Positions 21,376 to 24,573 of a DNA stretch of 64,000 nt are shown one piece after another. A program made the translations under genes and the position numbers. The stretch comes from Dictyostelium discoideum (lineage: Eukaryota), in the NCBI GenBank assembly GCA_000004695.1, contig CM000153.2, positions 1,568,001 through 1,632,000 on the forward strand. Direction: 5' to 3'. The notes below the pieces were generated by a model. It was not told where the DNA came from and searched no databases. It saw nothing but the letters and a program-made list of their open reading frames with translations. Numbering within the stretch: the stretch's first letter is position 1; the number at the start of each line of letters is the position of its first letter.

Positions 21376-24009
21376 TTATTTTTGTTTTAGTTCCAATTTT
21401 TTGATTTCCCTTTTTAAATTGGCCAACTCTGACTGTAATGAATATAATTGATTAAAATCATTTTTTTTCTTTTCAAATTGGTTTGTTAGCTTTAAATATT
21501 CAATAGCTTGAATTAAAAACTCTTGGTTAAATAAACCACCATCATTTAATTGAAGTGTTTGTTGTTGTTGCAGTTGTTTTTGTTGTTGTTGTGGTTGTTG
21601 ATTATTTTTTTTCTTTATAGTGTTACAAAAATTTGAAATCATATCACCACCCATTTTATGTAATTGAAATTTTGATTTAATCCTTTTTTTACATTTTGAA
21701 GCCATTGAAGCAATTTTCTTTGGATTCTTAATTAATTGTTTTAAAACTTGTACAAATTTATTGGTGAATTCCAAAGGGTCAATATCATTACCGCCACCAA
21801 TATCAGTAATATCAACCAAGAAACCACAATCAGATGTAACCAATTCACTTTGACCACCAACATTACTACCAACAGGTACTAAACCAATTGACATTGATTC
21901 ATAGAAAATCATAGAAACACCTTCGAATTGACTTGGCAAGAAAACTATATCACATGCAGAGATAATTGATTTCATATCTTGAGTTGGTACATCACCTAAT
22001 AATTTAATTACATCTGATAATCCATTCTGCTTAACATATAATTCAACCTTACTTTTCAAATAACCATCACCAACAAATAAAACTTTAAATAATTGATTTT
22101 GATTTTGATTTTGATTTTGATTTTGATTTTGATTTTGATTTTGATTTTGATTTTGATTTTGATTTTGATTTTCAAAATCATTTAATAATGATTCTTTTAA
22201 TTCTTTAATAATTTCACAAGCTTCTAATGGTTTTTTTTGATTGGTTAATCTTGCAGCATACAATATAACAATCTCTTTATCTGTTATATCATATGATTTT
22301 CTAATTTCATGTCTACTTGATTCACTCTTTTTAAATTCATCCATATCAACGTTTATATAGGTAACCAATATCTTATTTTCATCAATGATTTGATTACTCT
22401 TGGCCAACATCCAATTCTTTAAATGATTTGAAGAAACTAAATGTAAATCTATAAACTGACTCATTCCAATTGATTGTCTTGGATGGCCACCATTTCTCCA
22501 ATATTCTTCTTCCATATGATTATAATCGACTATTATTAAATTGTCTTTGTTATATTTATTTGATTTTATAAATGGTAATAAATAATAACCAAATTCACTA
22601 TTTGAAATGAATAAAACATCGATATTTCTTGAATCAATTAAATAATTTATAAATGAAGGATAAGATGAATATGGTAGAAACTTTTCATTGAATAAGAAAA
22701 TGTCAGGTGTATAAAGTTGAAACCTTGATAACCATTTATTATCAGATTCAATTGTGGTTACAATTGTAATTTCCCAACCTTTTTCAACCAATTGTTTACA
22801 AAGATTTAAATTGAATTTATCAGCACCACCAGTATTTAACCATGGTAATATTAATAAAATTCTTGGTGTTGATGATTTCTTTATTAATGGATTCTTAATT
22901 TCATTACAACTACCACCACTACCACCACTACTACCACCAATAAAATTAAAATTAATTTTAAAACTATCTTCATTTTCATTTCTAATTGGATTTGGGAAAC
23001 TTTTATATTGATTATCATTACCACCACCACCACCACCAATGTTATATAATTTTGAATATTTTAATTTTAAATCATTTAAAAACTTTTCTCTCTTTGAAGT
23101 TAATGTATTTTTCCAATTCTTTTCCATAGTTTTCTTATCTTTTCTTCTATACCATTCTAATATTTCTGGTATGGTTTCACCCCAATATCCAGCTGATGCA
23201 CATTTTAAATGAAAATCCCAATCTTCCATTCCATCTCTAATATTTGAATCATATTGAAATTCTAATAATTCTTTTGGATAATGAAAGTATTCACCATCAC
23301 CATCACTACCACCATAACTATAATCATCAACTTGAAAAGATTGATTTATTTGTAATTTATTACCAAACATTGAACGTTTATACATTATTGAAATTGTAAC
23401 TTGATTTTCTATTAAGAATTTATCAGCTTGTTCAAAACCTTTTAACCAAATATATTGAGTATGACCAAAGCCAACTAAATAACCTTTAGTGAATTGAATA
23501 TGAGAGGATGTATTTAATTTCCAAACCATTTTCTCTAATGCTGTTGGTTCTAAAATATCATCAGAATCGAAAAAGAATATATAATCTCCACGAGAATTGT
23601 AAACTCCAATATTCCTTGAATGAGGTAACCCTAAATTGAATGGATTAACAATTACTCTAAATCTAATTGGTTCACGTTTCAACCATTCTCTATATGATTT
23701 TATTGATTTATCATTGGTTGATCCATCATCAATTAATATAACTTCAATCAATTTAAATGATTGTCTAATTAATATACTCTCCATACATTCATTAAATTGT
23801 TGAGGATCTGTATTTAAAAATGGTACAATAACTGATACTATTGGTTTATTCCAATTAACAACTCTTTCTTCATAATTACTTGAATAATTAAAATTTATAA
23901 CTCTATTCTTTGATATTGGTGTACATGAATAATCTGGTGAATTTAAATCAAAACTACATTTTTCATCATCATCATCTTCTTCTTCCTCTTTTTTTTCTTC
24001 TCCTTCTCC

Positions 24010-24042
<33 letters not shown>

Positions 24043-24343
24043 TAAAAAATTTATACAATATTGATTTATAATATCATTTTTATTATTTATTATTTTATTA
24101 TTTGTATAATTATAAATTTTATTATTAATTGAAAAAGTTATTATTATATAAAATAAAAATAAAATAAAGAATAATGATAGAATTATTATTATTAAATTTT
24201 TAAAATTTTTTTTTTGTAAAATAATATTTTTAATTTTTTTAAATTTATTATTATTTATAATAGATAATTTTGAAATAAAATTTTTATTATTATAATTATT
24301 TTTATTTGTAATTTTATTATTTTTAATATTTTTAATATCATTA

Positions 24344-24422
<79 letters not shown>

Positions 24423-24573
24423 TATTATTATTATTATTATTATAATTTATTTTTTTATTTCCTCTTCTTTCTATTGATTGAAAATCTTTGAATAATAAAT
24501 TTTCTTCATCTTCATCCTCATCTTCATCATTATCACTTTCATAATTATTACTATTATTATTATTCAATGACAT
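21376..24573 (-). CDS. Membrane-anchored bifunctional glycosyltransferase: an N-terminal GT2 (GT-A) domain fused to a C-terminal GT4 (GT-B) domain
   Basis: 1065-aa single ORF. It has an N-terminal TM helix (LIIIILSLFFILFLFYIIITFSI). The GT2 signature is VSVIVPFLN...IDDGSTND...FFDSDD (DxD). The GT4 signature is RILLILPWLNTGGADKF...ILYAARLTNQKKP...FEGVSMIFYESMSIGLVPV (E-x7-E). A (GATTTT)n tract at 22095..22172 encodes the (NQ)n linker. Confidence 0.75.
22095..22172 (-). repeat. (GATTTT)13 hexanucleotide microsatellite encoding (Asn-Gln)n inside the glycosyltransferase gene
   Basis: Thirteen exact tandem copies on the plus strand. They translate as NQNQNQ... on the minus coding strand. Confidence 0.9.

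Follow-up and report, generated by a model that had tools for sequence, protein, structure and literature searches.

The 64,000-nucleotide stretch analysed here (hereafter the window) corresponds to chr4:1568001-1632000 of Dictyostelium discoideum AX4. This placement was derived from a published synteny table: once an offset of 1,568,000 is subtracted, the positions given there for three genes, DDB_G0284099, DDB_G0284105 and DG1039, are exactly those of ORFs in the window. Between DDB_G0284105 and DG1039 the ORF list contains a complete, single-exon CDS on the minus strand (21376..24573, stop codon at 21376-21378; chr4:1589376-1592573 in AX4) that encodes 1065 amino acids. This is pgtC (DDB_G0284107). 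Coordinates, architecture and size, and no residue-by-residue comparison with the named record, underlie this assignment, because the AX4 PgtC protein record is absent from the protein collection that was searched. Table S17, a CAZy-curated compilation from 2011, lists pgtB, pgtC and pgtD as the only genes that combine GT2 and GT4, and describes pgtC as 'GT2; GT4 bifunctional GT/GT' with an alignment length of 1029 (PMC3188802). Size sorts the window ORF with pgtC (~1030-1065 aa) and apart from pgtB (~1340 aa) and pgtD (~2185 aa); moreover, pgtB (DDB_G0290079) is located on chromosome 5 and encodes a GT61 domain, which the window protein lacks. The GT2+GT4 architecture is already recorded in dictyBase, CAZy and the literature and hence is not novel. 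A full-text literature search for DDB_G0284107 retrieved no paper.

The reading frame is uninterrupted over 1065 codons plus stop and its coordinates match exactly. An in-frame stop is found four codons upstream of the ATG, and the MSLNN start is shared with orthologues. The preliminary description had considered that the ORF might consist of two adjacent genes. We found one ORF, and a split gene, hidden intron or missed stop is ruled out by dictyostelid orthologues and bacterial homologues that are equally fused. The fusion is genuine, as the fused layout recurs in hundreds of bacterial homologues and in orthologues from eight or more dictyostelid species (six named genera).

Features of the protein are given below with their minus-strand positions in the window. 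The first 126 residues (24196..24573) form a predicted cytoplasmic tail, delimited by composition and charge count, with poly-N tracts, an acidic run and, adjoining the membrane, a K-rich segment; it has no signal peptide and is missing from bacterial homologues. It is followed by a signal-anchor transmembrane helix at residues 127-149 (LIIIILSLFFILFLFYIIITFSI; 24127..24195), which is the sole segment with a KD19 value above 1.6 (maximum 3.37; elsewhere than in the anchor region no value exceeds 1.31) and which is kept in all full-length dictyostelid orthologues examined. Eight K/R are found in the 27 residues preceding the anchor and three after it, a positive-inside bias. The stem that follows (residues 150-241; 23851..24126), defined by N-terminal alignment, contains C173, C206 and C217 as well as the motif PDY.CTP..R, from which point on the protein is collinear with its bacterial counterparts. 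The three cysteines are conserved among dictyostelids and absent from all four bacterial proteins compared. A single N-terminal signal-anchor with positive-inside bias, a stem and then the catalytic region is the layout of type II Golgi glycosyltransferases, in agreement with the type II anchor that had been proposed. We infer from this layout that the catalytic part, and the stem with it, would reside in the Golgi or secretory lumen while the N-terminal tail stays cytosolic.

The GT2 module, of GT-A type, comprises residues 242-510 (23044..23850) according to Pfam, motifs and structural model. Pfam Glycos_transf_2 (PF00535) matches residues 247-359 (E 4.7e-24; 85.6 bits versus a cut-off of 23.3), covering only the N-terminal 109 of its 168 model positions. 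Three GT2 motifs are present: DDGS at residue 282 (23719-23730), the DxD motif DSDD at residues 336-339 (23557-23568) and EDWDF, the acidic catalytic-base motif, at residues 450-454 (23212-23226). In an alignment of 109 sequences from dictyostelids and bacteria no substitution occurs at D336, D338, D451 or W452, and D339 and E450 are almost invariant. The predicted model shows a complete GT-A Rossmann-like fold, with a Dictyostelium-specific loop of low confidence at about residues 405-445, and this half resembles inverting GT2 enzymes. Such a module would be inverting and metal-dependent, and would use an alpha-linked nucleotide sugar to form a beta linkage.

An inter-domain linker of low pLDDT (residues 511-569; 22867..23043), with low-complexity runs of G6 at residues 513-518 and G/S at residues 546-555, leads into the GT4 module, of GT-B type (residues 570-985; 21619..22866), which was likewise delimited by Pfam, motifs and model. 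Glycos_transf_1 (PF00534) matches residues 754-924 (E 2.8e-19; 69.7 bits versus 26.4) and PF13692 scores 56.7 bits versus a cut-off of 27, while the N-lobe model Glyco_transf_4 (PF13439) gives a weak match at residues 582-739 (20.2 bits, below its cut-off of 28.5). GT4 motifs are the GGADKF loop with the N-lobe Gly-Gly at residue 582 (22813-22830), RLTNQKK at residue 775 with the R775/K780 pair (22231-22251), and E884-x7-E892 (21898-21924); G582, G583, R775, K780, E884 and E892 are all invariant in the 109-sequence alignment. The model shows a two-lobe GT-B fold that is closest to known GT4 structures, which are retaining, and this module would therefore form an alpha linkage. Two complete and mechanistically distinct folds with intact motifs, as initially read from the ORF, are thus confirmed by domain assignment, as had been suggested, here with Pfam, by the invariant key residues and by a confident AlphaFold model (pLDDT 90.2, pTM 0.91); the concern that one of the two regions might lack catalytic residues is answered by both motif sets being present and conserved across the alignment. 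No NCBIfam equivalog matched PgtC at its cut-off.

The low-complexity sequence had been described as G/N/Q linkers, which is correct for the G6 and G/S runs between the domains and incorrect for the remainder. A microsatellite-encoded (NQ)13 insertion is located inside the GT-B C-lobe (residues 802-827; 22093..22170), and the poly-N runs are located in the cytoplasmic tail and the stem. Repeat length differs between strains, with 13 NQ units here versus 4 in strain protein P0001. Downstream of the GT4 module a Q-rich segment and a long helical or coiled-coil tail (residues 986-1065; 21379..21618) were identified by AF2 helices (model residues 767-805 and 808-860) and alignment consensus. This tail includes an (A/L)IQAIEY helix that is common to the bacterial homologues (consensus 'A.QA.EY.RL').

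A search with full-length PgtC was dominated by poly-N words (20 matches) and the core alignment was used as query for family counts. This gave 247 matches with an E-value below 1e-20; for the listed bacterial ones identity is 31-38%, with mostly 94-99% of the core aligned. Of the clusters at 50% identity, at least 150 score below 1e-132, mostly as one stretch across both domains. Bacterial GT2-GT4 proteins of ~760 aa (P0007, P0034, P0045 and P0131) are collinear with PgtC from PD(Y/F).xTP..R through GT2, a WYRR..LKY interdomain segment and GT4 to the A.QA.EY helix. They differ in that all four lack tail, stem cysteines and anchor, no TM segment being found in their N-terminal regions, and are cytoplasmic. 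At three of the five bacterial loci examined (L001, L005 and L007) the homologue's gene adjoins a Wzm/Wzt ABC exporter and is accompanied by methyltransferases and other GTs; two of these Wzt proteins have a Wzt_C domain. No ABC exporter was found at the other two loci. The GT2-linker-GT4-helix unit of PgtC derives from a large family of ~760-aa cytoplasmic enzymes, mostly bacterial, that are usually encoded in polysaccharide loci, and dictyostelids added the tail, the anchor and the cysteine-bearing stem. The collinearity with this Wzm/Wzt-associated family is the new context that the present analysis provides. Dictyostelid PgtC was monophyletic in 50 of 50 trees and, with midpoint rooting, is sister to all sampled bacteria and not nested among them; a transfer from bacteria to dictyostelids is suggested by distribution only. 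Related proteins also occur in Clastostelium and in one MMETSP protist.

Dual-GT polymerases are the norm in ABC-transporter-dependent O-antigen pathways, where the modules set the repeat-unit sequence, often together with coiled-coil regions and methyl-type terminators, and Wzm/Wzt performs export (PMC11231755). WbdA, WbbM, WbbY, WbbB and K. pneumoniae ORF6-O7 have, like PgtC, two GT modules per polypeptide, and their Wzm/Wzt context matches the loci of PgtC's bacterial homologues. For none was a specific sequence relationship to PgtC detected, and none is among the PDB or NCBIfam matches above family cut-offs. Both modules of WbdA are GT4. Those of ORF6-O7 are GT2 and GT2 (PMC11231755), unlike the GT2+GT4 of PgtC. 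Coupling to an exporter, as seen at three of the five bacterial loci, is not seen for pgtC: neither an ABC exporter nor any other carbohydrate-pathway gene was found within the 64-kb window, so that the gene indeed stands alone there, as had been noted. For the bifunctional glycosaminoglycan synthases PmHS2 of Pasteurella and K4CP of E. coli the likeness to PgtC is limited to the GT-A fold; the second module is GT45 in PmHS2 and a second GT-A domain in K4CP, neither being GT4.

PgtB shares with PgtC the type II anchor, the stem, the GT2-linker-GT4 core and matching motifs, and PgtC aligns with the T. lacteum PgtB-type protein P0214 at 31% identity (E 1e-106). PgtB has an extra C-terminal GT61 domain, described as GT61-like (PMC13123520), whereas PgtC has its coiled-coil tail instead: PF04577 (GT61) was not found in PgtC by Pfam search and is present in P0214 and in the precomputed Pfam lists of full-length PgtB-type proteins. 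Both lineages occur across Dictyostelia; of 60 bootstrap NJ trees, only 2 unite them to the exclusion of other sequences. The preliminary description had named spore-coat polysaccharide among the candidate products. That suggestion fits the GT61-bearing paralogue and, as stated, is not supported for pgtC, because pgtB is the gene cited in the literature for the spore-coat Gal/GalNAc heteropolysaccharide. In addition, pgtB is a top, strong SpaA target among spore-wall genes, whereas pgtC has no entry in the SpaA ChIP target tables that were searched; it also has no entry among the rows listed in a cell-type RNA-seq supplement. West et al. reportedly found in 2009 that loss of pgtB alone abolishes the spore-coat polymer, and disruption of pgtC is said to have left this heteropolysaccharide in place. 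Because of the latter result no phenotype backs a polysaccharide product of PgtC. The idea that pgtC encodes the classical prespore UDP-galactose:polysaccharide transferase that makes the Gal/GalNAc polysaccharide was dropped, pgtB being tied to that polymer.

Taken as a whole we consider it probable that PgtC is a type II, lumenal GT2+GT4 enzyme of bacterial-family origin that adds two sugars alternately. Most likely it acts in the Golgi lumen as a bifunctional beta/alpha transferase and either extends or polymerises a glycan. The cytosolic tail and single anchor helix would place the two-enzyme unit in the Golgi or secretory lumen. There, in a rigid unit followed by the helical tail, GT2 would make the beta linkage and GT4 the alpha linkage, such that two different sugars would be added in alternation to a secretory-pathway acceptor, whether as a polymerised beta/alpha disaccharide repeat or as a two-sugar extension. 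A polymerase-like action is suggested by analogy: the disaccharide-repeat idea put forward earlier for the fusion fits both the Wzm/Wzt loci of the bacterial relatives and what is published about dual-module polymerases (PMC11231755).

A real though minor possibility is that PgtC acts non-processively and caps or branches the O- or N-glycans of secretory glycoproteins with one beta-linked and one alpha-linked sugar. A precedent is PgtA (DDB_G0283761, the Skp1 beta3-GalT/alpha2-FucT), which gave the pgt gene series its name and is, like PgtC, a Dictyostelium bifunctional enzyme in which a prokaryote-like GT2 is fused to a second GT. PgtA differs from PgtC in being cytosolic and soluble with GT74 as second domain, and it attaches two sugars one after the other to a single protein, Skp1, making no polymer (PMC8724618; Table S17). 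Sequence does not tell processive from non-processive action and no pgtC-dependent polysaccharide is known. Against such capping stand the closest bacterial relatives, located in loci for polymers exported by ABC transporters, and the paralogue PgtB, which is linked to a polysaccharide.

It is quite improbable that PgtC helps to make the spore-coat heteropolysaccharide of PgtB, for instance by branching or priming, with its loss masked by redundancy or a subtle phenotype. The common GT2-GT4 core and the conservation of both lineages across Dictyostelia would agree with this. Nevertheless, the reported difference between the two disruptions and the SpaA target tables speak against it, and the lineages are old and divergent, as is apparent from their rare exclusive grouping, which argues against simple redundancy.

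Very improbable is an inverse topology, N-out/C-in or tail-anchored-like, with cytosolic catalytic domains that use a cytosolic or lipid-linked acceptor as in the bacterial relatives. The bacterial homologues are cytoplasmic, with an N-terminal TM segment in none of the four examined, and Dictyostelium keeps prokaryote-like GTs in the cytoplasm (PMC8724618), but the charge bias favours N-in, the 126-residue tail has no signal peptide and only the eukaryotic proteins have the conserved stem cysteines. That one module is a catalytically dead scaffold is hardly credible, since nothing specific points to it except the partial Pfam coverage of the GT2 model, and the signature residues of both modules are invariant or nearly so in two folds that the model predicts to be complete.

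Returning to the alternating lumenal transferase, its wider meaning lies in the fact that PgtC is conserved across the sampled dictyostelid genera while, of the two paralogues, only PgtB is linked to a polysaccharide, that of the spore coat. The link with the very large Wzm/Wzt-associated bacterial family provides a concrete model, an alternating beta/alpha polymerase. A further-reaching version, which we propose tentatively and regard as unlikely in full, is that PgtC makes a new secreted or matrix glycan of alternating beta and alpha linkages and that dual-module polymerases of the bacterial O-antigen type were captured twice, once in the PgtC and once in the PgtB lineage. If so, candidates for the glycan include a polymer of the sheath, the cyst wall, the macrocyst wall or early development that is conserved across Dictyostelia, and each captured polymerase would have been retargeted to the secretory lumen by means of a signal anchor and a disulfide-bonded stem. 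By analogy with its bacterial relatives, PgtC may be an example of a prokaryote-type cytoplasmic polymerase put behind a eukaryotic signal anchor.

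The 64,000-nt window was placed with the chromosome 4 coordinates of a published synteny table (PMC3188802), from which it differs by an offset of exactly 1,568,000. Three published gene positions coincide with window ORFs: DDB_G0284099 (chr4 1569018-1570493, window 1018-2493), the C2H2 zinc-finger gene DDB_G0284105 (chr4 1580531-1582704, window 12531-14704) and the MPN/PAD-1 (MPN/JAB) gene DG1039 (DDB_G0284037; chr4 1593040-1595399, window 25040-27399, plus strand). The window is therefore AX4 chr4:1568001-1632000. The glycosyltransferase (GT) ORF at 21376..24573 on the minus strand falls between DDB_G0284105 and DG1039. 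The D. purpureum genome paper includes a CAZy-curated Table S17, in which three D. discoideum genes are listed as combining GT2 and GT4 domains, namely pgtB (DDB_G0290079, alignment length 1343), pgtC (DDB_G0284107, "bifunctional GT/GT", alignment length 1029) and pgtD (DDB_G0278731, alignment length 2185) (PMC3188802). On grounds of position, size and architecture the ORF is pgtC, a known gene that has already been named and CAZy-classified, hence the finding itself is not new. What is described here is PgtC as a member of a very large, mostly bacterial and uncharacterised family tied to Wzm/Wzt polysaccharide loci.

The ORF runs for 1065 codons without interruption; an in-frame stop lies four codons 5' of the ATG and the MSLNN start recurs in orthologues. 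Domain assignment, a check proposed in the preliminary description, was made with Pfam and recovered both catalytic domains: Glycos_transf_2 at residues 247-359 (E 4.7e-24) and Glycos_transf_1/Glyco_trans_1_4 at residues 754-924 (E 2.8e-19 and 4.1e-15), with a weak match of the Glyco_transf_4 N-lobe at 582-739. The GT2 motifs are DDGS 282, DSDD 336 and EDWDF 450; those of GT4 are GGADKF 582, RLTNQKK 775 and E884-x7-E892. The single-polypeptide fusion, the intact DxD of GT2 and the E-x7-E of GT4, all read earlier from the DNA, are hereby borne out, and that structural interpretation was essentially correct. NCBIfam and PDB sequence searches gave generic GT2 and GT4 relatives only, and since no NCBIfam equivalog model reached its cut-off the donor sugars are not assignable from sequence.

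Residues 127-149 form the sole candidate membrane span (KD19 3.37 versus 1.31 for the next best segment outside the anchor region), which upholds the signal-anchor helix described before. Eight K/R residues occur in the 27 residues preceding the anchor versus three after it, and the stem of the dictyostelid proteins has three conserved cysteines, C173, C206 and C217. Both this excess of positive charge on the cytosolic side and the stem cysteines, which are specific to the eukaryotic proteins, argue for catalysis in the Golgi or secretory lumen, behind a type II anchor. The gene model of the D. firmibasis orthologue P0005 lacks the transmembrane segment that is present in all other full-length orthologues examined; the gene predictor probably removed the AT-rich anchor region as if it were an intron.

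The low-complexity G/N/Q linkers proposed between the domains stand in part. G6 (residues 513-518) and a G/S run (546-555) are true inter-domain linkers, but the N runs are placed in the cytosolic tail and stem, and (NQ)13 (residues 802-827, window 22093-22170, minus strand) is a coding microsatellite inserted within the GT-B C-lobe, where it forms a low-confidence model loop. The number of NQ units varies between D. discoideum strains, with 13 in the window protein versus four in strain protein P0001, and the poly-N tracts of the tail differ between these two as well. An AlphaFold2 model of residues 205-1065, built with an alignment of 109 sequences, has a mean pLDDT of 90.2 and a pTM of 0.91, with low confidence only at a Dictyostelium-specific GT-A loop, the G-rich linker and the NQ insertion. 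Judging by the model, the long C-terminal helices may mediate oligomerisation.

Orthologues of the same layout were found in Dictyostelium, Heterostelium, Acytostelium, Polysphondylium, Cavenderia, Tieghemostelium and Synstelium. A profile search in which 8000 candidates were scored gave 247 proteins below 1e-20; the matches listed are mostly bacterial proteins of about 760 residues, which are 31-38% identical, in most cases across 94-99% of the core. Labels of the prokaryotic metagenome-assembled genomes (MAGs) comprise Bacteroidetes, Verrucomicrobiae, Planctomycetota, Chlorohelix, Deltaproteobacteria and Pyrinomonadaceae, as well as one archaeal MAG. An exhaustive HMMER scan gave 8674 matches below 1e-30, the best 150 cluster representatives all scoring below 1e-132 and most matching as one stretch across both domains. 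Dictyostelid and bacterial proteins are collinear from an N-terminal PD(Y/F).xTP..R through an inter-domain WYRR..LKY to a C-terminal A.QA.EY helix, whereas the cytosolic tail, anchor helix and three-cysteine stem are dictyostelid additions, absent in all four bacterial proteins compared. In some bacterial members TPR repeats, methyltransferases or additional GT modules form part of the same polypeptide. In giant multi-module members of 1450-2277 residues (P0135, P0137, P0023-P0028) the core is extended by duplicated GT-B modules, by additional GT2 modules, by TPR repeats or by methyltransferases at the N-terminus, which recalls polymerase-terminator fusions of O-antigen systems. The bacterial members appear to lack any characterised representative.

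The paralogue pgtB, on chromosome 5, encodes 1338 residues including a GT61-like domain (PMC13123520), confirmed by Pfam in the Tieghemostelium orthologue, unlike the window protein, which has none. The window protein shows 31% identity to the PgtB type versus 40%, over its full length, to the Tieghemostelium paralogue P0086. PgtB-type proteins (GT2+GT4+GT61; P0214, P0282-P0288, P0304) occur across Dictyostelia. The type is also present in Clastostelium recurvatum, a protosteloid, non-dictyostelid amoebozoan, and a related anchored protein, P0252, comes from an MMETSP marine-protist transcriptome; among eukaryotes the family is therefore not restricted to dictyostelids. N-terminal hydrophobic anchors are apparent by eye in P0237, P0231 and P0241, from unlabelled metagenomic or run assemblies.

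In a joint neighbour-joining tree (65 aligned family members, 60 bootstraps) the PgtB and PgtC types are each monophyletic in 60/60 bootstraps; a separate tree has the PgtC type monophyletic in 50/50. Midpoint rooting places the PgtC clade as sister of the sampled bacteria, not nested inside them. The distribution of the family makes a bacterial origin plausible. PgtC and PgtB types may have arisen by duplication after a single ancient acquisition, or by two independent acquisitions; an exclusive clade of both appears in just two of the 60 bootstraps, and mean identity of the PgtC type is higher to bacteria (37.6%) than to the PgtB type (34.2%).

The homologue directly adjoins a Wzm/Wzt-type ABC exporter in three of five bacterial loci examined (L001 1795-13037, L005 1-18555 and L007 7366-22280), two of the three Wzt proteins carrying a Wzt_C glycan-binding domain. 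These loci also encode multi-domain methyltransferases, NDP-sugar epimerase/dehydratase, sulfotransferases and further GTs, and L001 carries a second GT2-GT1 fusion paralogue. PMT_2 (GT-C) proteins and a polysaccharide deacetylase are further contents. The other two loci hold FkbM-type methyltransferases and GT4 genes, with no exporter in view. In ABC-transporter-dependent pathways a polymerase with two GT modules typically sets the repeat unit (WbdA, WbbM, WbbY, WbbB, ORF6-O7), often partnered by coiled-coil and methyl-type terminators (PMC11231755). If PgtC works in an analogous way, it would carry out two steps in turn, an inverting (beta) one by GT2 and a retaining (alpha) one by GT4, an activity for which the CAZy table has the phrase "bifunctional beta-GT/alpha-GT" (PMC3188802). 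The Dictyostelium version would have this two-GT unit placed behind a type II anchor, acting in the secretory lumen.

The spore-coat polysaccharide role suggested in the preliminary description fits pgtB, the paralogue cited for that polymer, instead of pgtC. In the work of West and colleagues, transcripts of both genes reportedly rise modestly in early development, strong induction at polymer accumulation being reported for pgtB only; disruption of pgtB, not of pgtC, is said to abolish the polymer. Citing papers refer to West et al. (2009) for pgtB and the spore-coat heteropolysaccharide, and prespore vesicles secrete a Gal/GalNAc polysaccharide (PMC2115956). The SpaA ChIP-seq paper names "the poly-glycosyltransferase pgtB" among spore-wall genes and has it as a top target (PMC5923282); pgtC was not found in the SpaA target tables examined, in line with the results attributed to West and colleagues. 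PgtC is of interest as a protein kept across Dictyostelia yet without a glycan attributed to it.

No carbohydrate-metabolism gene was found among the pgtC neighbours in the window, so that the gene does stand alone as first noted, which is normal for a eukaryotic genome. A tRNA-Ser gene (anticodon UGA, 21109-21190, minus strand) lies 186 bp 3' of the pgtC stop on the same strand. DG1039 is divergent from pgtC, with about 470 bp between the start codons; an AT-rich intron comes after its first exon (25040-25243), and its product has long poly-Q tracts. Besides the zinc-finger gene, neighbours include an RRM gene, an LRR protein gene (probably U2 snRNP A') and a large ankyrin-repeat gene (15322-18939, plus strand), whose three ORFs (15322-15909, 16027-16494 and 16675-18939) are presumably exons of a single gene. 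A short intron divides an E2F-family transcription factor gene (54284-56946, plus strand), with E2F_TDP and E2F CC-MB domains, into two ORFs. The AT content of the window is extremely high, with 11-37% GC per kb, and homopolymer runs are abundant in its proteins, as in dictyostelids.
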